Origin: an uncultured Clostridia bacterium
GTDB lineage: Bacteria > Bacillota > Clostridia > Christensenellales > CAG-917
Direction: 5' to 3'
Assembly (NCBI GenBank): GCA_934254835.1
Contig: CAKQMI010000003.1
Location: forward strand, 14,240 to 78,239
DNA: 64,000 nucleotides
This document shows, in pieces, positions 7,966-59,940 of this stretch; position 1 is the first letter of the stretch, and each line of letters opens with the position of its first letter. The notes under the pieces are model-generated. The model ran no database searches. It had not been told where the DNA came from and saw nothing but the letters and a program-made list of their open reading frames with translations. The position numbers were made by a program, and so were the translations under genes.

Positions 7966-9744
7966 TTACTTTAGCGACCGCAACAGTTTTTGACAGACCG
8001 ATAATTCCTCCATAATCTTACGTCGTTCTGCGGAATCTACCGCGACGTCAAAACTTTGCGAAAGTGTTTTGATGCGGAAATTGACGTAGTTTAAGTTCAA
8101 AAGTCTGACGCTGTCGCCATAGTATTTTATCAGTTTTGTTTCGTCGTGAAACTCCTTGACGGAGTTCAGGACGTTTGCGACTTCCTCGTCCTGCGACAAG
8201 GAATACAGCATATGCGCCTGCGGTTTTTCGCCGGCGTCGGTTTTTTCTTTGACGTAATCGTACACGAGTTTGTGCACCTCGTTGTCGCCGAAAACGTCAC
8301 GGGAGATGACGTCGTCGGGTTTTGCAAAGTCCGCGCCCGACGCCATTTTGTTCAGCACAAACCGCGCCGCTTCAAGACTTACGGGCAGTTCGGTTTTTTG
8401 TATTTGCGGTTCTTGGAACACAACTTCCGTTATGTCGTTTTCCAACCCGTCACGCAGTATATTCATCGCAACACGGCTTTTATCGTGCACAATTTCCAGA
8501 TAAACGTCGCGTCCTGTCGTATCAGGCAAAGTTTTGATGAACGCCAAAGCCTCGTTGACGTACTTTGCGCGACCTGTGTTGGTGGACAAGTTGTAGTCCT
8601 TTGCAATCACCGCCAAGACAAACTCGACGTAAGGCACCGCCTCGTCCAAAAGTTTTTCAAAGCCTTTTCTGCCGTGCTTTTTGACATAGTCGTCGGGATC
8701 CATACCTTCCTCGGGAATCGACACGACTTTCAGATTCAGCCCTTCCTTATTCAGGATTTCGAGGTTTCTGACGGTTGCGTGTTGTCCCGCAGCGTCGCCG
8801 TCGTAGCACACGCAGACGTTTTCGGAAAGGGTGCGAAGTGCGCGCGCCTGTTCCGGCGTGAACGCCGTCCCCATTCCCGCAACTACGTTGTTGAAGCCGA
8901 ACTTTGCCAAAGAAATAACGTCCATATATCCCTCGACCACGACGACGCGATTGACGGCGATTTTCTGTTTTTCTTTCTTGACGAAGTTGCCGGCGTACAA
9001 GACCTTGCCTTTTTCAAAAACTTTGGTATTGCGATAATTGACGTATTTTCCGCCCGTATATTCTTTGGTGATGGCTCGTCCGCTGAAAGCAACGACTCTG
9101 CCACGCATATCGAAAATGGGCACTATCATACGGCTTTGCAATGCGTCGAAAACGTTTTTGGATTTTTCGCTTTGCCACGCCACACCGCAGTCTAACATTT
9201 CCTGCTCGGAAAAACCTTGTTCTTTCAAGTGATTGATGACGCCGTCGTAACTTGGCGAATACCCGAGCCCGAACCTTGTCATAAGGTTTTTGTCGATACC
9301 GCGTTTTTCAAGGTAGGCGCGGGCATCTTTGCCCTCGTCGCCCATAAGACACTTGTAATAAAACTTTGCGGTGAGCGTCAAAATTTCAAAAAGCCTGTCC
9401 CGCTTTTCTTTGGACTCGGCACTGCGTTGAAGACCGACGGGCGTAGGCACTTGCATACCCGCGCGCTCGGCAAGGAAGGCAACCGCCTCGGGGAAAGTCA
9501 TACCCTCCATTCTCATAATGAACGTGATGACGTCGCCCGACTCGCCACAGCCGAAACAATGATAAAACTGTCCGTCCTCGTTGACGCACATCGACGGAGT
9601 TTTTTCATGATGAAACGGACAGCAACACCAAAACTTACCGCCTTTTTGTTGCAACTGGACGTACCGCGACATCACTTCGACTATGTTGTTTTTTTCCTTT
9701 AATTCCTGTAACCAGTCCAAAGGATAGCCTTCTTTTTGAAACAT
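7966..9744 (-). CDS. dnaG: DNA primase
   Basis: 592 aa. Zinc ribbon [14 protein letters not shown]...[17 protein letters not shown] motifs EGYMDVIS and YDGDAAG. Confidence 0.97.
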
Positions 9745-9793
9745 ATAACCTCAAACGTTTACAATTTATTATTCGTAAAAATTGTCGTAATTC

Positions 9794-10804
9794 CTAAAAC
9801 TCGCGCAATTTTTCTTGCCAGCCTTTCGGGATATAGATATCCGAAAAGACTTTTACGGCGTATCGGTCGCTCATTGCGGCGATATAATCGCACACGACGG
9901 TCTCCGCGCCGTAGTCGGACAACATATCTTTGTAAAGAACGGGAAGTTCCGCCGTGTTGCCCATAAAATATCCGAAAAGACTTTCGATAAGCCTCTTGGC
10001 TTTCACCTCTTCGTACTTTGCCTCCGACTGCGTATAAAGGTTTTTGAACATATACGAGCGCAGTTCGTCCAGCGCGCCCTCGAACTCGTCGGAAAGCGAA
10101 ATTTGCGGTTTGCTTATGCTGTTTTCGACAAGGTCGTACACAAGGTTGTTTATCCTGTCGCGGTGGGTGCGCCCCAAGACGTCGACGCACGACTTCGGCA
10201 GACTGTCCTCGGCAATAAGCCCCGCGCGTATTCCGTCGTCGATGTCGTGATTGACGTAGGCGATGCGGTCGGCGTATCCCACGACTTTCCCTTCCAAAGT
10301 TTTCGGATTGCCGTCGATGCGGTGTTCCCTTATGCCGTCCAGCACTTCCGCCGTGAGATTGAGTTTTTCCAGCACCTCGCACACGCGCACGCTCTGTTCG
10401 TTGTGCGAAAATTTGCCGTTGGTAAGCGCGCTTAAAGTGCGCTCGCCGGCGTGACCGAACGGGGTGTGTCCCAAGTCGTGTCCCATTGCGATTGCCTCGA
10501 TAAGGTCCTCGTTCAGGCGTACCGCGCGCCCGACAGTCCTTGCGATTTGCGACACTTCCAAAGTGTGCGTCAGACGGGTGCGGTAATGATCGCCCTCGGG
10601 CGACAAGAATACCTGCGTCTTGTGCTTCAATCGTCTGAACGCTTTGCTGTGGATAATCCTGTCGCGGTCGCGCTGAAACTCGGTGCGGATTTTGCACTCT
10701 TCAATCGGCGTTTCCCGCCCCGCGGTGTCGCGACTTTTGAAGGCATAGGGACTCAGATACTTGTCCTCGATTTCGTAGGTTACGTCTTTAATATCGTTGC
10801 TCAT
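9794..10804 (-). CDS. dGTP triphosphohydrolase-like HD-domain protein
   Basis: 336 aa. RDRDRIIHSKAFRRL, RLTHTLEVSQIAR and GHDLGHTPFGHAGE are typical of the Dgt family. Confidence 0.9.
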   Translation of the reverse strand: MSNDIKDVTYEIEDKYLSPYAFKSRDTAGRETPIEECKIRTEFQRDRDRIIHSKAFRRLKHKTQVFLSPEGDHYRTRLTHTLEVSQIARTVGRAVRLNEDLIEAIAMGHDLGHTPFGHAGERTLSALTNGKFSHNEQSVRVCEVLEKLNLTAEVLDGIREHRIDGNPKTLEGKVVGYADRIAYVNHDIDDGIRAGLIAEDSLPKSCVDVLGRTHRDRINNLVYDLVENSISKPQISLSDEFEGALDELRSYMFKNLYTQSEAKYEEVKAKRLIESLFGYFMGNTAELPVLYKDMLSDYGAETVVCDYIAAMSDRYAVKVFSDIYIPKGWQEKLREF

Positions 10805-16182: not shown

Positions 16183-16258
16183 GGACGTTTAACTCAGCTG
16201 GTAGAGTGTCTTCTTGACGTGGAGAAAGTCAGCGGTTCGAGTCCGTTAACGTCCACCA
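16183..16258 (+). tRNA. tRNA-Val (anticodon GAC), CCA encoded
   Basis: The hand-folded cloverleaf has acceptor GGACGTT/AACGTCC, D arm ACTC-AGCTGGTA-GAGT, anticodon arm TCTTC-TTGACGT-GGAGA, T arm AGCGG-TTCGAGT-CCGTT, discriminator A and CCA. Total 76 nt. Confidence 0.93.
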
Positions 16259-16292
16259 AAATAACGCAATCAAACGGTTGCGTTATTTTTTT
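16259..16292 (+). terminator. rho-independent terminator after tRNA-Val
   Basis: ATAACGCAA-tcaaacgg-TTGCGTTAT followed by TTTTTT. Confidence 0.7.
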
Positions 16293-16296
16293 GTAC

Positions 16297-16306
16297 GCTA
16301 ACGTCC
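16297..16306 (+). repeat. partial copy of the tRNA-Val 3' acceptor (GCTAACGTCC)
   Basis: 9/10 match to GTTAACGTCC of the tRNA, direct orientation. Short, so weak on its own. Confidence 0.3.
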
Positions 16307-16384
16307 TCTGCGCAAATACATTTGCGCGGGCTACGCCACGTCACACACTTCGCTTTAAAAATCGCATTATTTCTTTTAATAATG

Positions 16385-16440
16385 CTCACTCTTGCGCTCG
16401 TGTGCTCCTCTTCCCCAAAAGTACAAAAGTATCTTTTGGG
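16385..16440 (-). repeat. inverted partial copy of the 105-bp unit head
   Basis: The reverse complement CCCAAAAGATACTTTTGTACTTTTGGGGAAGAGGAGCACACGAGCGCAAGAGTGAG aligns with 17013-17068 (CCCAAAAGATACTTTTGTACTTTTGGGGAAAAGGAGTATGCGAGCGTAAGACAATC). Confidence 0.6.
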
Positions 16441-16456
16441 AGCCCCATTATTACGC

Positions 16457-16629
16457 GCTGACCGCAAGCAAAGAGAGGAGCAAGCGCTTGCATTTGCGAA
16501 AATCGAGCGTAGCGGACATAGACAACGATTGCACGAATTTTTCGTGCAAAATGCAAGGCATTGTTGCTTTCAACAAATCGTTGTCATAGACGCTTCACTA
16601 TGCAAGTAAACTTGCTCGTTCCGCTATTA
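16457..16629 (+). ncRNA. candidate structured RNA/DNA core, copy 1 (second copy 50845-51017 minus)
   Basis: About 173 nt align with the reverse complement of 50845-51017. There is a three-hairpin junction (16523-16583) and a further hairpin (16602-16615), and the stems are kept by compensatory changes between the copies. No ORF. Confidence 0.45.
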
Positions 16630-16631
16630 AA

Positions 16632-16641
16632 CGAGTCCGTT
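16632..16641 (+). repeat. partial copy of the tRNA-Val T-arm/acceptor (CGAGTCCGTT)
   Basis: 10/10 identity to tRNA positions 16237-16246, directly after the 173-nt core. Confidence 0.4.
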
Positions 16642-16775
16642 CCAAGGGGCAGAGAACACCGAAATCTTGATTTCGGTGTTCGGCGGTTGCTTGCAAACGC
16701 TTACGTTGTGTAGCGTGTATGAAATGGTAGATAGTTTGTAGCATTTCGAAAAGCATAAATGGTACGCCCAACGCA

Positions 16776-16809
16776 GAGTAGCCCCGTTAACGTCACGCCC
16801 GTTAACGTC
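16776..16809 (+). repeat. two adjacent partial copies of the tRNA-Val 3' end
   Basis: GAGTAGCCCCGTTAACGTC and CCCGTTAACGTC compared with tRNA GAGTCCGTTAACGTCC. Confidence 0.5.
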
Positions 16810-16883
16810 GCTTTTTGTCCTCGGCAATTCTCTTTACAGCAACGAATTACTCTCTTATGTCATTGCGAGGAGGATATCGGTGT

Positions 16884-17003
16884 CTCCAAAAGATACTGAC
16901 TAATGGGCCCCGCGGGATACTGTGTACCCGTGGGGAAAAGGAGTATGCGAGCGTAAGACAACCGACTGTCGCTTGCGACAATCGGTTGGTCAAAAACGAA
17001 GCA
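16884..17003 (+). repeat. tandem repeat unit a (period about 105 bp)
   Basis: CTCCAAAAGATACT ... GGGGAAAAGGAGTATGCGAGCGTAAGACAACCGACTGTCGCTTGCGACAATCGGTTGGTCAAAAACGAAGCA. Confidence 0.7.
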
Positions 17004-17011
17004 ATCGGGGC

Positions 17012-17108
17012 CCCCAAAAGATACTTTTGTACTTTTGGGGAAAAGGAGTATGCGAGCGTAAGACAATCGACTGTCGCTTGCGACACTCGATTGGTCAAAA
17101 ACGAAGCA
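17012..17108 (+). repeat. tandem repeat unit b
   Basis: CCCCAAAAGATACT ... GGGGAAAAGGAGTATGCGAGCGTAAGACAATCGACTGTCGCTTGCGACACTCGATTGGTCAAAAACGAAGCA. The 72-nt body is near-identical to unit a. Confidence 0.7.
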
Positions 17109-17116
17109 TACGACGT

Positions 17117-17136
17117 GAGTAGCCCCGCTAACGTCC
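17117..17136 (+). repeat. partial copy of the tRNA-Val 3' end
   Basis: GAGTAGCCCCGCTAACGTCC compared with tRNA GAGTCCGTTAACGTCC, direct orientation. Confidence 0.5.
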
Positions 17137-17405
17137 TTCTATGCGCTCTTTTGCTTGTGTCAGTTAATACACCGTATCGTATCGGCTCATCGTTTCACAA
17201 GGTGTCCCTTCCGGGAGATTGCCACAACACCGCAAGGCGGTGTTTCGCAATGACGTATTGAGGGCGTTCCTCAGAATGACAGAAGCGAGTGCACCACGCA
17301 ACTCTTAAAATGGCGTATGCTCGCTATTCATTATTTTACCTTGTAAAAACAATACTTTAACACCTTGTTTTGTCAATTGAATATACTTTTCTCGTTTTTT
17401 GTTTT

Positions 17406-28156: not shown

Positions 28157-28888
28157 TCACTTCCTGTTTTCTATATTATTTATTAAAAAGTCTATTCCCC
28201 TTTTTAAGTCGTTGTAAGTTGCGTCAAAATCCCCCGTGTAGTACGGATCGGCAACGTCGCGCGTTTCGCCCGAAAACTCCAAAAACTTTTTTACCTTGTT
28301 CCCTTTATCGGGCGCGAAAAGCCTTTTCAGATATGCGACGTTTTGGTCGTCCATGCCAACCGTGAATAATACAAACTGTTAGAAATCGCCGATATTTCCG
28401 TGCTTTTCGGCAATTACTCACTTGTAGTACAAAAAGTACAACTGCGTTCGTCTTTTCCAAAAATCATCGAAACTCTCGACGGTTTGGTCTAAGGAGTATT
28501 GCCCCCGCGTTTTTAGACGAAAACAAGGCACGCGAGCGGGTTAATACTGTATGTATAAGCCGTGAGCGCAACGAAGTTTTAGTCAAAAACACGGAGCAAG
28601 ACCATAGTTCGTATTATTCACGGTTGGCATACCAAGAAACAAATCGTACTTTTCATAGTCGGATTTTTTGACGGGCTTTGAATAATGCGGATAAGTCGAG
28701 ACGCCATGCTCGTGCAGTTTTTCAAGGGCTTTCGGATAAGTCGGATTACCCTCTTCAAAGGAGCAAGTCGCCGAGGAATCGATTGTATATTTGCCACTCA
28801 ATCCCCTTTTTTGCAAGGCGTCGTTCATCATAAATTCCGCCATTGCGCTTCGACAAATATTCCCAAGACATACAAACATTATTTTCAT
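28157..28888 (-). pseudogene. low-molecular-weight protein-tyrosine phosphatase split by a 274-bp insertion
   Basis: The N-terminal part is MKIMFVCLGNICRSAMAEF...KYDLFLGM (28888 to about 28629). The C-terminal part is (M)DDQNVAYLKRLF...DVADPYYTGDFDATYNDL (28354-28157). Removing 28355-28628 plus one AT restores LFLGMDDQNV. Confidence 0.85.
28355..28628 (+). mobile_element. non-autonomous TIR element (MITE-like), copy A
   Basis: Ends are GCCAACCGTGAATAATAC...GTATTATTCACGGTTGGC (18 nt perfect, 22/23), with AT on both flanks. No ORF. About 90 percent identical by eye to copy B at 59668-59940. Confidence 0.8.
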
Positions 28889-36438: not shown

Positions 36439-36576
36439 GATTAGGTCACGCGACACTATTTTCGATGATTTTTGAAAAAGGCGAGCGCAGTTGTACTTTT
36501 TGTACCACAAGCGAGCATTTTTTGAAAAGCGCGGAAAGAGTGGCGTTTGGACAAGATTGCATTGTTTTCGGTTGGC
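36439..36576 (-). mobile_element. diverged, 5'-truncated copy (D) of the TIR element, inverted orientation
   Basis: ...TTCGATGATTTTTGAAAAAGGCGAGCGCAGTTGTACTTTTTGTACCACAAGCGAG...TTTTCGGTTGGC followed by AT. It aligns with the reverse complement of the left half of copies A and B. Confidence 0.55.
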
Positions 36577-36583
36577 ATATAAC

Positions 36584-36663: not shown

Positions 36664-38370
36664 TTAGACAATCTCATCGATCATCTCATAGAAGTCCCAT
36701 TTCAAAACGTCCCAGTATCCGCCGACAGTGCCGTGGTCTGCGATGTACAAGCAGACGGAACTGACTTGATTGAACGCTTTGGAAATCTTGCGGTTTTCCA
36801 AAACGAATTTGCCATCAATGAGAACGTGTCTTCTGGCTTTGACGTTTTCCAGGGTTTTGCCGTCCTTATAGTTAAGTCCGCCAACACACGCATTGGTGGG
36901 CATTGTGCCGTCGCCGTCGCCGTAAAGAATGGCATTGTGGTCGTAGGAATAATACTCGATACTGGTCAGCGGATTATCGTACGCGTGGTTTTTGGTATCC
37001 CACATTTCGTACGTAACCTTATTGACCTTGACGGTGTCAGTATCCTGCGTCACGATTTGCAAACTCTTTTTGGTGTTGTAACCGGTGCCCAAGCAATAAG
37101 TCGTTTTGACAAGTTCGGGCGCGAAAACGTTCGCCTCGTCGGCATTGTTTTCCTTGACATAGAAAGAGTTCCAATACTCGGGAAGGTCTCTCATGCCGGG
37201 CTTGAGTTTATCATAGATGCCGTCGACGTCCGGTCTCCAATCGCTGGTGTGCGCCCACGGACGCGAGCAATACCATGCATACATATCCGTCACGGGCTTG
37301 CCGTCAACGTACACGGGGCTTTCGCCCTCTTTGTAATATTCGGAATCCGCAAAGGTTTGGAACGGCAACAACTGCATAACCGATGTCATATTTTGCGCAA
37401 GAGGACCTGCGATTTTCTTGACGCCTTCCTTGATTGCGTCGATGCCGAGCACGAGATTGCCGAGTTTGTCGCCGATTGCGCCGGTGACTGCGTCCGCAAC
37501 ACCGCCCGCGGGATCGTCAAGATAATAGATTGCGTCCAAAGAACCTGCGGTTGCGGGAGAGAACGCACGATAAGCTTTCACGATTTGGTTGGGACGCTTG
37601 ACGGCTTCTTGACCGGGATTAATCTTTTCGGCTTCCAACCATCTGTTTTGAAGCAGTGCTATGTATCCCGCAACGACGGGACCGCCCATACTGTGCGAGG
37701 TAAGAACGACTTCGTCCCAGCCGTTGGTTTTGATGAACTGATCCAAAAGTTCGGAGTTTCTTCTGTTGTCCCAACGCCAGTCGTAGTTGAAAACGACGAC
37801 GTCCCAGCCGAGTTTCTCATATCTTGCTTTGAGGTCGAGGCACTGCTGACGATACGTTGCGATTGCGCCGTACTGAATTTTTTCTCCGCCGGTGTACGCG
37901 CCGTATCCGTCGATGATCTTGCCTTCCTCATTCCAGAAAGTGGCTTTGTAGTTGCCGTCCTCTGTGGTGGGCAGTACGTTTGCGGGACGCAGGTTGGGGT
38001 TGTTGCTTTCGCCCTGCTCGTTCAGCGTGATTTGCCACAAAAAGTTTTTGGTGCCCTCTTTATACTTCAATACTCCGCCGATTAGGTCGAACGTCGTGCT
38101 GTCGGTAAGCACCGACATAACAAGCCCCAACATATCCCCGCCCGGAAACACTTGTTGGAAATAGACGCCCTCTGCAACGGGGTCCCAAACCGACTCGTTC
38201 GTCTCTTTGTCGTAAAGACCGCCCGACAACAACGCCGTACAAATGACAACGGCTTTTTTGTTCTTCGCCGAATTCTGCGATGAATCGTCGCACGCCGTCA
38301 GAACGCCAAGGCTCAGAACCGCCATCACGACAACCAGCAGAATTACGATTAATTTCTTTCTCGCCTTCAT
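36664..38370 (-). CDS. lipoprotein, alpha/beta-hydrolase of the LCAT/lipase type
   Basis: Start at MKARKKLIVILLVVVMAVLSLGVLTAC (lipobox LTAC) behind a GAGGAGG RBS. Nucleophile elbow VVLTSHSMGGPV. Confidence 0.7.
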   Translation of the reverse strand: MKARKKLIVILLVVVMAVLSLGVLTACDDSSQNSAKNKKAVVICTALLSGGLYDKETNESVWDPVAEGVYFQQVFPGGDMLGLVMSVLTDSTTFDLIGGVLKYKEGTKNFLWQITLNEQGESNNPNLRPANVLPTTEDGNYKATFWNEEGKIIDGYGAYTGGEKIQYGAIATYRQQCLDLKARYEKLGWDVVVFNYDWRWDNRRNSELLDQFIKTNGWDEVVLTSHSMGGPVVAGYIALLQNRWLEAEKINPGQEAVKRPNQIVKAYRAFSPATAGSLDAIYYLDDPAGGVADAVTGAIGDKLGNLVLGIDAIKEGVKKIAGPLAQNMTSVMQLLPFQTFADSEYYKEGESPVYVDGKPVTDMYAWYCSRPWAHTSDWRPDVDGIYDKLKPGMRDLPEYWNSFYVKENNADEANVFAPELVKTTYCLGTGYNTKKSLQIVTQDTDTVKVNKVTYEMWDTKNHAYDNPLTSIEYYSYDHNAILYGDGDGTMPTNACVGGLNYKDGKTLENVKARRHVLIDGKFVLENRKISKAFNQVSSVCLYIADHGTVGGYWDVLKWDFYEMIDEIV

Positions 38371-38487
38371 AGTTTCCTCCTCAAAAGGGGACAATAACCC
38401 TTATACACTACTATAATAACATTACTTTTTGAAAATAACAAGAACTTTATCAACAATTGTTTTTCCCCCACCCCCAAAAAATCCAAA

Positions 38488-38523
38488 GAAAAACGGCAAT
38501 TCCGCCGTTTCGGAATTGCCGTT
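38488..38523 (-). terminator. rho-independent terminator after the 605-aa lipoprotein gene
   Basis: Minus strand reads ACGGCAATTCCG-aaacgg-CGGAATTGCCGT followed by TTTTTC. Confidence 0.7.
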
Positions 38524-38560
38524 TTGTATGTTTTAATTATTATTGAAGTTCCGTAAAAAA

Positions 38561-40378
38561 TTACAAAATATAGAATTTTGCATTGTTAAGTCCGATACCT
38601 CCAATTGACGTTGCGACATCCTTTGGAGCTTCATATTTTTGAGCGTCGGACAATTTCTCGTTGATTTTCAAAACTATCTCGTTTGTCAACACGATATTTC
38701 TTTCCGTATACTCGCCATCGGTCGGGCAGTAACGGATTTCTGTTTTGATGTTTATCGACACAATCGCGCCGTCCTTCATTTCGATAACCATTTCCGACTC
38801 GTCTATTTGATTTTGTTCCGCATTGAAATAATTCTCGACGTCTGTGATTTTATTGGTCGGATTTGAGTTTATAACGCTTGTTATTTTACCTTGAACGCCG
38901 TGCGTTGCGCTATTGTTGAGATAGATATAATACAAAACCTTGCCGTCTTTTTCGACTTTCTTTATGCAATCTACGTCAGAAGCGTTTGCTTTTGCAACAG
39001 CCATAAGATAATCGAATTGTCCGTCCGCACTTATCCCTTCAAGCTTCTCGTTGGTATTTGTACCCTTTCTCGAAATACGATAAACTTCGCCCGTTTTGAT
39101 ATTTCCGATAGTAAATTTAAATTTATCTTTATCATCGGTATCCGTATGTGCATTGTAAACAAAGGAATGGTTAAAATCAACTCTTCCCGTGTCGGCATCC
39201 GTGTTTTTATACATTCTCGCAACATACTTGTCCACAGTGGCGTTTATATTCCACGCCGGATCAAATTCATTTTTCGCTTCTAAATCAATGGAATAAGCAT
39301 TTGAATTTTTCAAATCGGCAATGGCATTTTCAATTGTTGACATTTCTCTTTCAACTGCCTCTCTTTCGGTAATTAGACCTGCTACGGACGGGATAACTAC
39401 TTCTGTCGAATTCGCCTTTTGCAAATATGTAAGTTTAAATTGAACATTGACACCTTTAACAGGGAACGAAATATCCGCGCTTAATTTGAAGTCGACAAGC
39501 TTTTTATCGTTTCCAATATTGAAGTATAAGGATACGCCCATCGGATTGGAAAATGCTACGCCTTTCAAGTCTACTTTCGTTCCGAGTTTTTCCAACACAG
39601 AGAGTAATTTTGACACTATAGAATTGTTCGAATGAAGTCCTATCGTCGCAACGTATTTATAATCTGTACGTCCCGACAGCGCGATTTTTTTAACGTTATC
39701 TTCTTTAAGCGCATTGATAAGCGATACAAACGGAATGTTTATAAGATTGAGTTCCTCGTCTTCGGCAGGAATAATCGCTGTTTTTTTGACTTCTCCTTTA
39801 TCGTTTGCAACGACTTTAACTTTCGCATCGTTTTGAGTGTAGATATATTCCGTTGAATCGACAAGCAAAAGACCGCTTGTTTGACGCCAGAATTTGATTT
39901 CACCGGTATCTTGATTATATCTATACTTCCCGTCATAATTGGCGTTTGCCGTTTGCGTGATACCTAACGCATCAACAGTGCCAGCAAGATTCAGATAAAA
40001 ATCATAGTTTTGAACCTTGTCGTTTTTTGCAAGTGTTCGTGCGGAAACCAGCAATTTCGCACTCGGCATAACAATCATTTTTGCATTTAATGTCTTTGGG
40101 TTATAACCATCTTTTGACACTGTTACTGTTGCATTGTATTCGCCGATTTCGGTTGCGGTATTGTTATCATACTCAATCGTTGCCCCAGCCGGTGCACCTT
40201 TAACCTCGATTTTGTGTTCGGTTCCGTCATACTCGAACGTTGCATCTTCAAAAGTCAGGTTGTCAAATGACGCCAGACCTTTTGTTCCGCCACCCTTGTC
40301 GCCGCAGGCAACGAGCATCATCATCACCAAAACGGCAATGACAAGAGTTACAAAGAATAAAATCGGTTTTCTTTTCAT
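38561..40378 (-). CDS. large lipoprotein of unknown function (N-terminal MBG/Ig-like module)
   Basis: 605 aa. Signal + lipobox MMMLVACG. FEYDGTEHKIEVKGAPAGATIEYDNNTATEIGEYNATVTV resembles MBG-type surface-protein repeats. Confidence 0.6.
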   Translation of the reverse strand: MKRKPILFFVTLVIAVLVMMMLVACGDKGGGTKGLASFDNLTFEDATFEYDGTEHKIEVKGAPAGATIEYDNNTATEIGEYNATVTVSKDGYNPKTLNAKMIVMPSAKLLVSARTLAKNDKVQNYDFYLNLAGTVDALGITQTANANYDGKYRYNQDTGEIKFWRQTSGLLLVDSTEYIYTQNDAKVKVVANDKGEVKKTAIIPAEDEELNLINIPFVSLINALKEDNVKKIALSGRTDYKYVATIGLHSNNSIVSKLLSVLEKLGTKVDLKGVAFSNPMGVSLYFNIGNDKKLVDFKLSADISFPVKGVNVQFKLTYLQKANSTEVVIPSVAGLITEREAVEREMSTIENAIADLKNSNAYSIDLEAKNEFDPAWNINATVDKYVARMYKNTDADTGRVDFNHSFVYNAHTDTDDKDKFKFTIGNIKTGEVYRISRKGTNTNEKLEGISADGQFDYLMAVAKANASDVDCIKKVEKDGKVLYYIYLNNSATHGVQGKITSVINSNPTNKITDVENYFNAEQNQIDESEMVIEMKDGAIVSINIKTEIRYCPTDGEYTERNIVLTNEIVLKINEKLSDAQKYEAPKDVATSIGGIGLNNAKFYIL

Positions 40379-41283
40379 TTTGTTTCTCCCATAATATTTT
40401 TTATTTGTTTATTTATTTTCGATATTGTAAACGGGTACGAAAACGGCGCAACGATAACGCCGACACCGACGCCGATAAAGAATAACAATACGCCCAGTAA
40501 AAATCCCAAGATTGCAAAGCCGATTTTTGCGACTACTAAAAACGCAAGTCCGCCCAAGTCCAACGAGAATATTATCCCCGGAAGTCTAATGGGACGCGTC
40601 ACAAACCACACCAAAATCTCGGGTATCGGTCCTTCGTCCAAAATGACTTCCGAAACAAAGGCGAACGCCCCGTAAATCATAAATATTGAAAACGGGATAA
40701 ATATCCCGAGATATTCGTTGAACTCACCGCTTGCCATCAATATAATATTGAATATCAATACCAAAGCGGTAACGATACTTCCCCAAATTATGCTTTTACG
40801 TTTTTTCTTTTTGACGTCTTTTGCTTTATTTTCTTTGTTTTGTTGCGCAATTTCCGCTTTCTTTGCATCGATTGCCTTTTGCGCTTCATAACATTTTCTG
40901 CACAACACTTTCGGCGCAATCATACCCGCATTGTCCATTGTGACGATTGTCCCGCACGAAACGCAATATCCGATTGTATTCGCCTGATTTTGCTTGACGG
41001 CATTTTCGACAGCGGTTGCAATTTGCTCGGACACAACAGCCTCTGTCTCTTGTCCGTCCGATACGGTTTTGTCGTCCGCGGTTTCATGATTGATATCCAA
41101 AAAATCATCAATTGATATCTTGAATATGTAACTAATCTTTTTGATGGTTGATAAATCGGGCTCGGCTAAGTTGTGCTCCCATTTGGAAACCGCTTGCGCG
41201 CTTACGTTCAGCGCCTCACCAAGCTGTGTTTGCGTCATATTTGCGTTTTTGCGTAATTGCGTTATCTTTTGTCCATAAGTCAT
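40375..41283 (-). CDS. XRE-family HTH protein with zinc ribbon and C-terminal TM domain
   Basis: 302 aa. ITQLRKNANMTQTQLGEALNVSAQAVSKWEHN, CVSCG...CRKC, and 4 predicted TM helices. GGAGGTG RBS. ATGA overlap with the downstream lipoprotein gene. Confidence 0.8.
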   Translation of the reverse strand: MTYGQKITQLRKNANMTQTQLGEALNVSAQAVSKWEHNLAEPDLSTIKKISYIFKISIDDFLDINHETADDKTVSDGQETEAVVSEQIATAVENAVKQNQANTIGYCVSCGTIVTMDNAGMIAPKVLCRKCYEAQKAIDAKKAEIAQQNKENKAKDVKKKKRKSIIWGSIVTALVLIFNIILMASGEFNEYLGIFIPFSIFMIYGAFAFVSEVILDEGPIPEILVWFVTRPIRLPGIIFSLDLGGLAFLVVAKIGFAILGFLLGVLLFFIGVGVGVIVAPFSYPFTISKINKQIKNIMGETK

Positions 41284-41728
41284 ACAGCCACCTCCATATT
41301 TGAATTATATGTGATTAAACCGATGGTTGCAAACGGAGAGGCTCAACCAAAAGTTGAATTGCTAGAAATTAAGTTGAGTTGATTACATTGCCACAAAAAT
41401 ATGACGAAAAATCGACAATTTTTCAGCGTTTATTCGGCTATTTCGGTACAAAAAATTAAGAGATATATAACAAGAGCCTTATGCTAAAAGTTTACCCCCC
41501 CCCCGTATTTTGTCAAGCTGTTTTTTTATACGCTTCGGCAACCTTATAACCGCCAACGTTGCAAAAGCCGAGCGGATAAGGAAAATTTGAATTAAATCGT
41601 TTTGGAAAATAAAATAATCAACCACAAAAAAAGCGCGGATCGGCGGGGGATTTGCGATTCGCGCGGGTAAGTTTTAATTTGGTTTTTATGCGGATTTTGA
41701 CGCGGATTTTGATGCGGTGTGCGGTTTT

Positions 41729-43525
41729 TTAAGAAAAATTGTATTGAGCGTTATAGATTTCGGCGTAAAAACCGTTCTTTGAAAGCAATTCGTTGTGCGT
41801 GCCCGTTTCGACGACGTCGCCGTTTTTGATGACCAAAATTTTGTCGGCGTTGACGATTGTCGAAAGTCGGTGGGCGATGACGAAACTCGTTTTTTCTTTC
41901 ATAAGCCTATCCATTGCGCCCTGTATCAAAAGTTCGGTGCGGGTATCGACGGAACTTGTCGCCTCGTCCAGAATAAGAAGCGGTCTGTCCGACAAAAACG
42001 CTCTTGCAATCGTCAGCAACTGTTTTTGCCCGCCCGAAAGGTTGGTCAGCGACTCGTTGACTACCGTGTCGTAGCCGTCGGGGAGCATTCGTATAAACCC
42101 GTCGGCGTGGGCGGATTTTGAGGCGTTGACGACCTCTTCGCGAGTGACGTTGTCTTTGCCGTAGGCGATGTTGTCGTAAATGGTACCGCCGAAAAGCCAA
42201 GTGTCTTGAAGCACCATCGAAAAGCAATTTCGGACGCTCTCGCGCGAAACTTTGCCGGTATCGACGCCGTCGATTTTTATAGTGCCTCTGTCCGCGTCGT
42301 AAAACCTCATCAAAAGGTTGACTATGGTGGTTTTGCCCGCGCCGGTAGGTCCGACGATTGCGATTTTTTGCCCCTTTTCGACGTGGATATTCAGGTCTTT
42401 GATAAGCGGATTTTCGGGATTGTACGAAAACGCGACGTGCTCGAAATCGACAACGCCCTCAACTTTTCTTGGCATATCGCCCGTTCGCACTTCCATCTCG
42501 GGTTCGTCCAGCACCTCGTACACCCTTTTCGACGCGGACGCAACCCTTTGCATACTGCTTATCGCGCCTGCGATTCTTTCAAGTGGCGAACTGAACATTT
42601 TGGCGTAAATGACGACGGCGATTATGTCCGCGACGCTCACTGCGCCCCCTCCGATTTTCACGCCCTCGATTGCAAAGTACGCGCCGATAAGACAAATCGC
42701 AACGTAGGCGATATTGTTGGTCAGCGACACGACGGGAGCGATTATCGACGACAAGAACGTCGCCCTCTCTTCCGCCTTGCACATTTCGTCGTTAAAGCGC
42801 GCGTGCTTTTCTTCCTGCTGATTTTCGAGGTTATAACTCTTTATGGTCTGATAGCCCGAATAGGTTTCTTCGACAACTTGATAGATGTCACCCGATGCCT
42901 TGAACATAGTGTCGTAACAAGGCTCGCTCTTTCTTGCGATGACGTACGAAACGATGACCGACAACGGCACAAACGCAATCACAATCAGCGCAAACACCCA
43001 GTTTATCGTGAAAATCATAACTGTAATCGTCAGAAGTTGCAAAATGCCCATCAACAGCGTTTCGACGATACTATGTATGCTGTTGCCCATTTGCGACACG
43101 TCGCCGGTCATACGATCCAACAGTTGTCCCGCCTCGGTTTTGTCAACGTAGGACACCGGCAAAAACTTGATTTTCGTCGACATATCCATGCGAAGTCCCG
43201 CCGTGAAGTGCATACTGACAATCTTGTTGGACGCCAGCATTTCGACGTAATGCAAGATGGAATACAGCGTGTAAATGACGATGAGAATTATCAGCGAATT
43301 TTTGATTTGTCCGACAAGGTCACCCTCACCGCCGTATGCGTTTATGACGTCCAAAGCGTCCGACAAGAACTTGGGTGCGGCGATATTGACAGCCATCGTG
43401 AGCGCGCTCAAAACGCACACCAGCACCATGCCCCACTTAATTCTGCCTATTTCTTTTATCAGGCGCAAGATGATATTTTTCGTCTCCGACCTGCTCAATT
43501 TATCTGCATCGCTGAAACGTTTCAT
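41729..43525 (-). CDS. ABC exporter, fused permease/ATPase (ABCB/MdlB-type)
   Basis: Start at MKRFSDADK (ATGA overlap with the upstream stop). 6 TM helices, Walker A GPTGAGKTT, LSGGQKQ, LILDEATS. Confidence 0.9.
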   Translation of the reverse strand: MKRFSDADKLSRSETKNIILRLIKEIGRIKWGMVLVCVLSALTMAVNIAAPKFLSDALDVINAYGGEGDLVGQIKNSLIILIVIYTLYSILHYVEMLASNKIVSMHFTAGLRMDMSTKIKFLPVSYVDKTEAGQLLDRMTGDVSQMGNSIHSIVETLLMGILQLLTITVMIFTINWVFALIVIAFVPLSVIVSYVIARKSEPCYDTMFKASGDIYQVVEETYSGYQTIKSYNLENQQEEKHARFNDEMCKAEERATFLSSIIAPVVSLTNNIAYVAICLIGAYFAIEGVKIGGGAVSVADIIAVVIYAKMFSSPLERIAGAISSMQRVASASKRVYEVLDEPEMEVRTGDMPRKVEGVVDFEHVAFSYNPENPLIKDLNIHVEKGQKIAIVGPTGAGKTTIVNLLMRFYDADRGTIKIDGVDTGKVSRESVRNCFSMVLQDTWLFGGTIYDNIAYGKDNVTREEVVNASKSAHADGFIRMLPDGYDTVVNESLTNLSGGQKQLLTIARAFLSDRPLLILDEATSSVDTRTELLIQGAMDRLMKEKTSFVIAHRLSTIVNADKILVIKNGDVVETGTHNELLSKNGFYAEIYNAQYNFS

Positions 43526-49660: not shown

Positions 49661-49783
49661 TTTACCCTCGTACAAGATATTTTACCGTGAGTTAAATTTA
49701 TTATATCCCTTTTCCGACAATATAGCAATAAGAAACGCACCGATTTTGTTAAAATTTTAATTTGATAGATTTTTTAGTAAACT

Positions 49784-49804
49784 ATGCCAATCGATAATAC
49801 GAAC
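49784..49804 (+). repeat. possible solo terminal repeat of the TIR element (fragment E)
   Basis: ATGCCAATCGATAATACGAAC compared with the element end ATGCCAACCGTGAATAATACGAAC (2-nt gap, 1-2 mismatches). Confidence 0.35.
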
Positions 49805-49907
49805 CGCCCCAAAATAAAAAAAGGAAACGCGAAATTCGCCGTTTCCTTTTTTTGACGCAGATAACTTTTAATATTGCAGAACCTCGCTTATCCAACCTTT
49901 CCCCTAT

Positions 49908-50726: not shown

Positions 50727-50799
50727 GCCAACCGTGAATAATACGAACTGTGCCAAAACGCCGATATTTCCGTGCTTTTTGGCACAGTTCGTATTATTC
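50727..50799 (+). mobile_element. internally deleted mini-copy (C) of the TIR element
   Basis: AT+GCCAACCGTGAATAATACGAACTGTGCCAAAACGCCGATATTTCCGTGCTTTTTGGCACAGTTCGTATTATTC. The left end is intact and the right TIR is truncated. It forms a 22-bp perfect hairpin. Confidence 0.6.
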
Positions 50800-50804
50800 C
50801 TGTC

Positions 50805-50826
50805 TGGTATGGAGATGCGGGGTTTG
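50805..50826 (-). repeat. partial duplicate of the tmRNA 3' end (att-like)
   Basis: Minus strand reads CAAACCCCGCATCTCCATACCA, compared with the tmRNA 3' end CAAATCCCCGCATCTCCACCA (51150-51130). Direct orientation. Confidence 0.6.
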
Positions 50827-50844
50827 TAGCAAGCAAAGTTTGCG

Positions 50845-51017
50845 TAATAGCGGAGCGGGCGAATTTATTCACTAAAGCGGAGCGTCTACGCTCAACGATT
50901 TGTTGCGAGCAACAATGCTTCGCATTCGTGTGATAAATCACACAATCGTTGGCTATGTCCGCTACGCTCGATTTTCGCAAATGCAAGCGCTTGCTTCTCT
51001 CTTCGCTTGCGGTCAGC
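50845..51017 (-). ncRNA. candidate structured RNA/DNA core, copy 2
   Basis: The reverse complement aligns over about 173 nt with 16457-16629. It has the same hairpin architecture with compensatory substitutions and lies 112 nt downstream of tmRNA on the same strand. Confidence 0.45.
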
Positions 51018-51090
51018 CCGGGTACCGGGGTTCACGTTGCAAAGCAACGGCACGGCTTTTGCCGTGCAAAATCCCCGCTTTAGCGACATA

Positions 51091-51120
51091 GAAAAATAAG
51101 TTGAACAGGAGTTCAACTTG
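51091..51120 (-). terminator. rho-independent terminator after ssrA
   Basis: AAGTTGAAC-tcc-GTTCAACTT followed by ATTTTTC on the minus strand. Confidence 0.7.
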
Positions 51121-51129
51121 TTTCTCGTT

Positions 51130-51496
51130 TGGTGGAGATGCGGGGATTTGAACCCCGGTTCGTCCTTCTACGTCCGATACCTTCTACATGCTTATTCGGT
51201 GATTAGTTTCTCTTACCGTCGTTCGCCGACAGACGGCGGTTTTGAAGAGACGGAGAATGCCGATTTACCTACCGTCGTGAGTAAACCCGTAGCCCGTTCA
51301 GTATGACGCCGATTGCTTACGGAACAGGAACGTAAGGTCGACGTGCCACAATAATTAAGCGGCGAATGCGAACGCAGGAGCGTTCACTTTTTCGTTATTT
51401 TTTGCGTTTAATTTTAATTTTCCGTCTTTAACGCAGTCGGACCTGCGACATGCTTCTTATCGCCCATACAAAAACGTCGAATCCAAAAACATCCCC
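51130..51496 (-). ncRNA. ssrA: tmRNA (SsrA)
   Basis: 5' end GGGGATGTTTTTGGATTCGACG and 3' end GGACGAACCGGGGTTCAAATCCCCGCATCTCCACCA form the tRNA-like domain. The tag reading frame at 51405-51355, GCA AAA AAT AAC GAA AAA GTG AAC GCT CCT GCG TTC GCA TTC GCC GCT TAA, gives AKNNEKVNAPAFAFAA*. smpB is nearby. Confidence 0.93.
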
Positions 51497-59644: not shown

Positions 59645-59667
59645 AGTTCTATTTTATCCTGTTTTAT

Positions 59668-59940
59668 GCCAACCGTCAATAATACGAACTTTGCCAAACC
59701 GCCGATATTTCCGTGCTTTTTTGCAAAAACTCGCTTGTAGTACAAAAAGTACAACTGCGTTCGTTTTTCCCAAAAATCATCGAAACTCTCGGTGGTTTGG
59801 TCTAAGGAGTATTGCCCCGCGTTTTTAGGCGAAAACAAGGCACGCGAGCGGGTTAATACTTTTTGTCTAAGCCGTGAGCGTAACGAGGTTTTGGTCAAAA
59901 ACGCGGGGCAAGACCATAGTTTGTATTACTCACGGTTGGC
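59668..59940 (+). mobile_element. non-autonomous TIR element (MITE-like), copy B
   Basis: GCCAACCGTCAATAATACGAAC...GTTTGTATTACTCACGGTTGGC with AT on both flanks. Collinear with copy A. Intergenic, between the MGMT-like gene and ilvB. Confidence 0.8.

Follow-up and report, generated by a model that had tools for sequence, protein, structure and literature searches.

What is the strongly folded, gene-less insertion of 325 bases that follows the transfer-messenger RNA (tmRNA) gene, ssrA, in a 64,000-nt stretch of DNA from an uncultured Clostridia bacterium (Christensenellales, CAG-917; contig CAKQMI010000003.1, positions 14,240–78,239; the whole stretch is called the window here)? The tmRNA gene, which hosts the insertion, lies at 51130–51496 of the window on the minus strand (Rfam RF00023, 146.7 bits, model positions 1–374, full length), and the inserted module follows at 50805–51129. 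Comparison of related loci, which are designated by L numbers, shows at the level of sequence an insertion at the ssrA T-loop, belonging to a family that has ends specific to the host gene, forms arrays, leaves some sites empty and is spread across gut Christensenellales. The module is probably a non-autonomous integrative mini-element that is fixed in its species and was mobilised in trans by an enzyme encoded elsewhere.

Integration into the 3′ ends of tRNA and tmRNA genes is textbook knowledge, established for elements with their own integrase and many genes. The family described here is reduced to 110–330 non-coding bases and bears four signs of activity: a conserved fold, ends that are adapted to the adjoining gene, conservation between species above that of syntenic DNA, and arrays. 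If the modules are mobile, the family defines the minimal cis requirements of T-loop-specific integration and points to a trans-acting recombinase in abundant, little-studied human gut bacteria.

Anatomy of the module downstream of ssrA

All sequences and the order of parts within the module are given on the minus strand, as the tmRNA reads. The module is bounded by two direct copies of the tmRNA 3′ end. The first (DR1, 51130–51150, CAAATCCCCGCATCTCCACCA) comprises the last 21 nt of the working gene, from mid-T-loop to the CCA, and the second (DR2, 50805–50826, CAAACCCCGCATCTCCATACCA) is a displaced and decayed copy. The two copies share one gapless 16-mer with 15 of 16 positions identical, and the two indels between them sit in DR2, not in DR1. 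Their local alignment score of 16 was reached by none of 1000 shuffles of the downstream 1000 nt (best shuffle, 12.5), so the 3′-end duplicate described in the original prediction is real. In relatives, the equivalents of DR2 are perfect repeats of 18–21 nt. The 3′ end of the tmRNA gene itself is intact, as indicated by the full-length RF00023 match with the CCA ending at 51130. An empty ssrA site would read tmRNA...CCACCA joined directly to GACAGGAATAATACG.

Immediately downstream of the gene is an intrinsic terminator (51091–51119) with a 9-bp stem and 4-nt loop (51098–51119) and a T-run that extends to 51091. It is homologous to the terminator of unit 1 in L009 (CP091734.1), the closest species representative, whereas terminators differ in other units and arrays. 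The terminator is followed by an inverted copy of the tmRNA T-arm, which the original prediction did not include and which is divided into two halves. Segment X (51069–51078, GCGGGGATTT) is the reverse complement of the 3′ part of the T-loop and the 3′ strand of the T-stem, and segment Y (51024–51034, TGAACCCCGGT) is the reverse complement of the 5′ strand of the T-stem and the start of the T-loop. Jointly, X and Y form the exact reverse complement of the T-arm (ACCGGGGTTCAAATCCCCGC), with the loop split by two small hairpins (51035–51067), P1 (GCACGGCAAAAGCCGTGC, 51050–51067) and P2 (CGTTGCTTTGCAACG, 51035–51049), and this inverted copy is able to pair with either direct copy. Hairpins at the position of P1 and P2 also occur in L009, L108 and L109, with different stem sequences in the latter two. 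The equivalents of Y are species- and gene-specific: CGAACCCCCG in L007, GAACCCTGGT in L010 and GAACCCCTG at tRNA-Arg in L108.

The left edge of the variable region is formed by a hairpin (CCCGG-TAC-CCGGG, 51012–51029) that overlaps the conserved motif GGGCTGAC. This motif or CAGCTGAC is common to L009, L007, L108 and L109, and the copy beside tRNA-Val reads GCGCTGAC. The long form of the module contains an extra domain of 128 nt, delimited by alignment (50884–51011), which is missing from the short forms in L009 and L109 and is found at the same position in the tRNA-Val copy (16463–16591) and beside tRNA-Arg in L108. The right part of the body (50827–50883) is common to the units of L009 and L109 and consists of CTCCGCTTTA, a hairpin (50859–50872), CCGCTATTACGC and a second hairpin (50829–50843); the stem sequences of these hairpins change between copies and the pairing is kept. 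The core of 176 nt (50845–51020) recurs at 16454–16629 with 82% identity over 178 columns (E = 1.8e-42). The terminator, small hairpins, core and 3′-end duplicate that the original prediction had listed are thus all present where it placed them. Its statement that the element carries no gene also stands: the short open reading frames (ORFs) of the module show no conservation, and several frame-breaking single-base indels separate the two core copies. The substitutions between the core copies form compensating pairs in stems.

Occupied and empty sites at ssrA and at tRNA genes

We compared 61 species-representative ssrA loci, which were located through homoserine O-succinyltransferase (HTS)–ssrA synteny. 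An nhmmer profile was used for ssrA in the relatives, given the misses of ARAGORN, which makes no tmRNA call for window 51130–51496, L001–L003 or L009, but detects the gene in relatives that are slightly more distant. Ten of the 61 loci contain a full non-coding module of 110–190 nt that is closed by a copy of the locus's own tmRNA 3′ end. In five others (L045, L053, L071, L079 and L084), only the left end of the module is present, with housekeeping genes after it, and in the remaining loci neither a 3′-end copy nor an inverted T-arm copy was found. This distribution agrees with the insertion signature that had been proposed from the window alone. At many empty loci the tmRNA is directly joined to a conserved flank (CGTCGAAGCA...). 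The occupied and empty members of two pairs can be aligned through this flank (L050 and L033, ∼95% flank identity; L046 and L034, ∼85%), which follows the second repeat copy when the site is occupied and the CCA when it is empty. The unoccupied ssrA sites that were predicted to exist in relatives are therefore represented by these two pairs, but none was found for the locus of the window's own species. L012, with a tmRNA 3′ end identical to that of the window, has no module. In L009, whose HTS is 91% identical to that of the window, ssrA is followed by two tandem window-type units of 184 nt and a partial third, and these units lack the 128-nt extra domain.

A separate observation concerns the flank itself. 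In L033, L034, L026, L048, L058, L060 and others, the ∼130 nt right after the tmRNA CCA (CGTCGAAGCA...GCTTCTCCTTTTTCCCAAAAATCTTTTG...CAAAATCTTTTCGGGAGCCC) contain long inverted repeats and are 85–95% identical between species, which is unusually high for intergenic DNA. This segment could be a terminator or a small RNA.

The same bodies are found at other genes, in line with the earlier proposal of one family aimed at tRNA-like 3′ ends. A window-type module follows tRNA-Arg(acg) in L108 (MT835493.1), with a core that is 91.5% identical to that of the window (BLAST) and a perfect 20-nt repeat, so the core does occur next to a further tRNA gene, as had been anticipated. Its inverted T-arm halves, AGGGATTC and GAACCCCTG, match tRNA-Arg. 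The short form of the window type follows tRNA-Leu(cag) in L109 (MT835490.1), with a perfect 21-nt repeat, and two of the eight tRNA genes in ∼400 kb of the related genome carry window-type modules. A second body type follows the tmRNA gene in L029, L046 and L050 and tRNA-Leu(tag) in L039, L047, L057 and L061; a metagenome scan also showed it, often in tandem, after tRNA-Leu(gag) (L089, L097) and after another two tRNAs (L095, L100). The order of the parts is the same in every case: host gene, terminator, inverted T-loop and 3′ T-stem, covarying hairpins, and direct copy of the host 3′ end, with the inverted 5′ T-stem additionally present in the window type. Both module ends always match the adjoining gene, and the inverted copies track the host sequence in all families. 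The inverted copy holds T-loop bases that are missing from the downstream direct copy, i.e. TTGCA at tmRNA (T-loop TGCAA) and TTGAA at tRNA-Leu (T-loop TTCAA).

Tandem arrays are present in L009, L089, L095 and L097. The three successive repeat copies of L089 are each followed by a different terminator, which fits serial insertions beside the gene that each supplied a 3′ end and a terminator. This bears out the suggestion that these elements come with a terminator of their own. In L055, L061, L010 and L009, the repeat runs on through the terminator. Cargo was observed in L008, a strain of Candidatus Faecicola pullistercoris, in which positions 9601–10512, downstream of ssrA, encode a protein of 303 residues that matches the Uzume protein UzuA (PADLOC, E = 8.6e-53) and has a GIY-YIG-like C-terminus. 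The gene lies within a 3.4-kb segment between two module-plus-repeat copies, this segment is missing from strain L007, and the L008 assembly contains a gap of Ns near it. The gene was considered as a candidate integrase and rejected, as it is an Uzume defence gene with a GIY-YIG-like domain. The modules mark hotspots in which cargo, defence genes for example, is found.

The core is 91.5% identical between species, in comparison with ∼83% for syntenic, mostly coding DNA, and the two copies of the window are only 82% alike. This cross-species conservation points either to a core that moved recently between loci and species or to one under strong constraint. A core 20-mer (AAAATCGAGCGTAGCGGACA) had no match in genome contigs or viral contigs and another (GCGAAAATCGAGCGTAGCGG) had none in metagenome contigs, and the long form is therefore rare outside the window's genus. 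A phage origin of the core was considered, because it matched two GenBank records labelled ‘Bacteriophage sp.’, and rejected, since these are bacterial chromosome: MT835493.1 encodes HypA and HypB (hydrogenase maturation) and a tRNA-editing protein, and MT835490.1 and MT835548.1 are syntenic with window 4–41385 at ∼83% identity. These three records, which are labelled ‘UNVERIFIED: Bacteriophage sp.’ and come from a human faecal virome, represent the chromosome of a relative of the window's organism. MT835476.1, MT835503.1, MT835718.1 and MT835522.1 are probably from the same relative, the link being a common dispersed repeat alone; the loci of all seven records are L108–L119.

Within the window, the second core copy (16454–16629, plus strand) is part of a module beside tRNA-Val (16183–16258), and this copy is oriented towards its tRNA gene as the first is towards ssrA. 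Right after it is a 10-nt copy of the tRNA-Val T-loop and T-stem (CGAGTCCGTT, 16632–16641, plus strand). The parallel that the original prediction drew between the two loci holds for the core and its orientation; the 10-nt duplicate that it cited is the weakest of several. Clearer tRNA-Val 3′-end fragments are located at 16293–16306, 16776–16794, 16797–16810 and 17117–17136, in 1.15 kb of non-coding DNA (16259–17405), and the last three of them, on the plus strand, delimit further small non-coding units. The junction of CGAGTCCGTT with (T/C)CAAGGGGCA is also present in L119, the syntenic tRNA-Val locus of the related genome (∼83% identical), from which the core module is missing. Two further contigs (L102 and L103) contain a single GAGTAGCCCCG(T/C)TAACGTC where the window has two, 341 nt apart (16776–16794 and 17117–17135). 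Their flanking gene region is ∼99% identical to the window and the non-coding DNA around the repeat can be aligned only in part, so the difference is likely the gain or loss of a unit, though not a clean one. When contigs L101–L104 were compared with window 16200–17030, metagenomic contigs of the species tended to end inside or just before the tRNA-Val array, which suggests that the array breaks short-read assemblies. Such breaks, and the creation of tRNA-fragment pseudo-genes, are practical consequences of the modules.

Folding and competing explanations

Joint folding of the two window core copies with RNAalifold gave 51 pairs, of which 7 are fully compensated and none is broken. A long-range helix between GUAGCGGA (50958–50965) and UCCGCUAU (50847–50854) connects the extra domain with the body's right part. 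For the second family (10 members), the consensus pairs the inverted copy with the downstream direct copy and encloses the hairpins; 90.8% of the cells are paired, and compensation is seen in 12 of 29 pairs. This consensus has a covariation score of 0.251, compared with 0.096 in shuffles (none of 500 reaches the observed value) and at most 0.087 in slid-partner controls. The covariation of the stems therefore indicates that a single strand folds. The 288-nt window module is predicted to fold with a z-score of −4.9 in a structure closed by the pairing of X with DR2. Adding the tmRNA 3′ end to the folded sequence changes this pairing: X and Y then take up the whole T-arm in 21 bp, interrupted by the small hairpins (z = −9.8). 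The opposite strand folds about equally (z = −4.6), so energy does not separate the strands. Read on the tmRNA-sense strand, the helices of the core include G-U pairs but lack A-C pairs. The variable lengths of loops and stems in these predicted structures fit a folded single strand better than fixed double-stranded protein sites.

If the module is a mini-element, its arrival would have brought a replacement tmRNA 3′ end (DR1, 51130–51150) together with its own terminator, so that the tmRNA gene was kept intact, and the original 3′ end would have been displaced ∼320 nt downstream, where it then decayed (50805–50826). Between the two copies would lie the inverted T-arm split by two hairpins, the GGGCTGAC junction and the folded body, which in the long form contains the 176-nt core. 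Since no module holds a gene, insertion and loss would need a recombinase encoded elsewhere, one that would target the T-loop in the manner of known integrases specific for tRNA genes and ssrA and that would require the folded body and the inverted T-arm copy in cis. Such specificity has precedents, as ssrA- and tRNA-specific elements insert at the same T-loop position with tyrosine or serine recombinases (PMC3146451). The ssrA module is identical in all 7–8 metagenomic contigs of the window's species and is therefore fixed in it; this copy is probably no longer mobile.

Several observations weigh against a mini-element. Among the contigs of the species, the window locus showed no empty ssrA site, no excised circle and no polymorphism between strains; related genomes have different genes downstream of ssrA, L105 is chimeric, L106 is too short to serve as an empty site, and the ssrA locus of the related genome is not among the phage-collection records. 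The integrase that the original prediction proposed to look for did not emerge: Pfam scans of 30 window ORFs detected no integrase, transposase or resolvase domain, and there was no recombinase among the tested ORFs beside modules in L008, L045, L053, L071, L079 and L089. Viral contigs, true phage records and plasmids contained no full-size parent element or related sequence, and three module-type patterns gave no match in the viral contigs. As neither an excised form nor a recombinase was seen, we infer movement from comparison. Double-stranded circles of 110–330 bp suit classical integrases poorly as substrates, covarying stems whose loops vary resemble RNA or single-stranded DNA structure more than double-stranded protein-binding arms, and the inverted T-arm copy has, to our knowledge, no role in textbook attP sites. 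This copy may be a fold-back recombination site or an antisense or guide segment, and its match to the host may also be kept without selection through template switching between imperfect inverted repeats. The solo left ends in five species may be remnants or may be a sign that the left part has a use of its own.

The structural data raise the possibility that the module chiefly encodes a small structured RNA, or forms an RNA domain when transcription reads through from ssrA or the tRNA gene, with a 5′ end that is antisense to the adjoining T-arm and a 3′ end composed of a copy of the gene's 3′ half plus a terminator. Its copies would have arisen through duplication or recombination and not by dedicated transposition, and it would be compatible with a mobile element. 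Compensated stems with variable loop lengths, G-U but no A-C pairs on the tmRNA-sense strand of the core, a terminator at the end of each unit, and a fold that closes from 5′ to 3′ (with the z-score of −4.9 given above) would all be expected of an RNA, and TATAAT-like hexamers were noted by eye 7–17 nt before the inverted copy in L031, L055, L074, L087 and the solo left ends. However, a promoter scan of the window module revealed no promoter-like site inside it and the second body type has no consistent −10 box, and the opposite strand folds almost as well. Furthermore, Rfam 15, with any transposon guide RNAs that it represents, contains no matching family: only the tmRNA and tRNA genes reached the gathering score in the window (E ≤ 10) and in seven relatives (E ≤ 1), and the sub-threshold overlaps with STnc480, BcKCsr2, tmRNA_permuted and MicX are weak and chance-like. 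Patchy occupancy in close species and arrays of near-identical units are typical of selfish DNA, and an RNA gene does not readily account for the same body at unrelated tRNA genes with rewritten ends. We consider an RNA gene unlikely as the main identity of the module. The pairing of the T-arm with X and Y could instead indicate that the modules are recombination sites that fold as single strands, like integron attC or the folded attP of phage CTX; the inverted T-arm would pair with a direct copy and rebuild a duplex target, and cassettes would be added serially at the T-loop by a recombinase encoded elsewhere. In agreement with this, the T-arm is fully paired over 21 bp (z = −9.8), the inverted copy supplies T-loop bases that DR2 lacks and that track the host (TTGCA at tmRNA, TTGAA at tRNA-Leu), structure is kept while sequence varies, arrays grow beside the gene, and the L008 cargo, including the Uzume gene, lies between a repeat plus terminator and the next module, where the gene of an integron cassette would sit. 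On the other hand, no integron-type integrase or other recombinase is linked to the modules, and only an integrated unit can form the full T-arm foldback, as excision would leave it without the 5′ strand of the T-stem. Template switching could preserve the inverted-copy match without selection, and the L008 assembly has a gap. Folded single-strand sites of this kind are a very unlikely explanation. In its broadest form, this explanation would posit an as yet undescribed array system that is anchored on tRNA and tmRNA genes and has the modules as its cassettes. Its units would be folded single-strand recombination sites, whose inverted T-arm rebuilds, or guides to, the duplex T-loop target, and gene-less units of 110–330 nt and occasional cargo (Uzume in L008) would be added serially by a recombinase encoded elsewhere; we regard this as quite unlikely.

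The least probable of all these explanations is that the module is the inert scar of an ordinary prophage or genomic island at ssrA, nearly all of which was deleted. It would then be a strict cis-mobilisable element (CIME), i.e. a gene-less element bounded by left and right attachment sites (attL and attR) (PMC5704250), with no function and no family. The 3′ ends of tRNA and ssrA genes are classic integration sites with such repeats, decayed tandem remnants are common there (PMC5704250, PMC3146451), and the two indels in DR2 of the window would be in line with decay. Random deletion, however, would not leave ssrA and the tRNA-Val, tRNA-Arg and tRNA-Leu genes of several species with one and the same bounded body, nor would it keep stems through compensating changes, and a core that is more conserved between species than syntenic DNA (91.5% versus ∼83%) would be unexpected. 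The modules contain no gene fragments, and no parent element was found for them; descent from an identifiable integrative and conjugative element (ICE) or integrative and mobilisable element (IME) is not supported.

Relation to known systems and neighbouring sequences

Full-text literature searches returned no paper describing such modules. A close likeness to the proposed mini-element is seen in genomic islands and prophages at tRNA or ssrA 3′ ends, for example the ssrA islands of Dehalococcoides, which also insert midway along the T-loop, leave a ∼20-bp 3′-end repeat at the far boundary, rebuild the gene from the element and form tandem arrays downstream of ssrA (PMC3146451). Those islands are several kb or more in size and carry an integration module with the serine recombinase DsiB (PMC3146451), whereas the modules described here are 110–330 nt long and gene-less, with a conserved folded body, an inverted T-arm copy and no nearby recombinase. 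Streptococcal CIMEs, as known from the accretion of ICEs and IMEs, are similar in that they are bounded by attL and attR (DR2 of the window being decayed), lack integration and transfer genes, stand in tandem with other elements at the 3′ end of the target gene, and are expected to depend on a recombinase from another element (PMC5704250). CIMEs are decayed ICEs or IMEs that are mutually unrelated beyond their att sites (PMC5704250); in contrast, the modules have one structured body at several tRNA genes and in several species, with ends adapted to the gene, and no parent ICE or IME is known.

In integron attC and in the CTX attP, short imperfect inverted repeats fold a single strand into a copy of the duplex target, and a similar fold is predicted for the modules. 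The modules resemble attC in having a structure that is more conserved than the sequence, arrays at one fixed site and no recombinase in the unit. They also have a predicted single-strand fold that pairs the site ends, formed by the helix between the inverted copy and DR2 together with covarying internal hairpins. Any single-strand activity of the modules is putative. Unlike integron cassettes, they lack an IntI gene, an attI site and a GTTRRRY core, their target is the T-loop of a tRNA or tmRNA, and most units are gene-less.

Miniature inverted-repeat transposable elements (MITEs) and repetitive extragenic palindromic (REP) sequences are likewise small, non-coding, hairpin-rich, multi-copy and non-autonomous. 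They differ from the modules in having no fixed target gene, no duplication of 20–100 nt of a tRNA 3′ end and no terminator, and module copies were found only beside tRNA or tmRNA genes. MITEs, which derive from DDE transposons, are dispersed and end in inverted repeats next to which a short stretch of the target is duplicated. X and DR2 are inverted repeats, but a MITE identity was rejected, as the duplication comprises 20–100 nt of the tRNA 3′ end and a terminator separates it from X. Three further candidates were rejected by reading the sequences. A tRNA-like acceptor stem built from GGGGAT near X is not indicated, as X tracks the T-arm of each species and not the acceptor; a conserved GGAG motif pairing with a 3′ CUCC fails in the tRNA-Leu copies; and group II introns, IS200/IS605 and IS110 ends have no matching features here and would give no long direct repeat.

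True dispersed repeats (the palindrome at 50736–50800 and the repeat at 16923–17108, which is also nested in L108) adjoin or enter the arrays and look different from the modules. The palindrome of ∼64 nt (GGAATAATACGAACTGTGCC...GGCACAGTTCGTATTATTC) directly follows DR2. At least five further occurrences in the window (59665–59725, 28353–28412, 28603–28637, 36525–36580 and 49783–49814) are 77–94% identical; the element is REP/MITE-like and was not found in ∼400 kb of the related genome. The other repeat, of ∼105–130 nt (GGGG..CCCCAAAAGATACT..GGGGAAAAGGAG...), is present in tandem at 16923–17003 and 17028–17108 and as an inverted partial copy at 16390–16446; at least 12 dispersed copies are found over ∼400 kb of the related genome, one of them nested in the tRNA-Arg module of L108.

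The gene order SecG–RNase R–SmpB–Cys/Met pyridoxal-phosphate enzyme–HTS–ssrA is kept in relatives. In the window, SmpB, the Cys/Met enzyme and HTS lie upstream of ssrA, and a TetR regulator and a serine dehydratase lie downstream. HTS of the window shares 71% identity with that of Candidatus Faecicola pullistercoris and 67% with that of Christensenella, which assigns the window to gut Christensenellales. Elsewhere in the window, the segment at 38000–42000 has a GC content of 40–42%, compared with ∼48% in the rest, and encodes a protein of 302 residues with an HTH_3 domain, whose N-terminus resembles the PADLOC RmrA models, and a protein of 605 residues with no Pfam or PADLOC match. This segment may be an acquired island.

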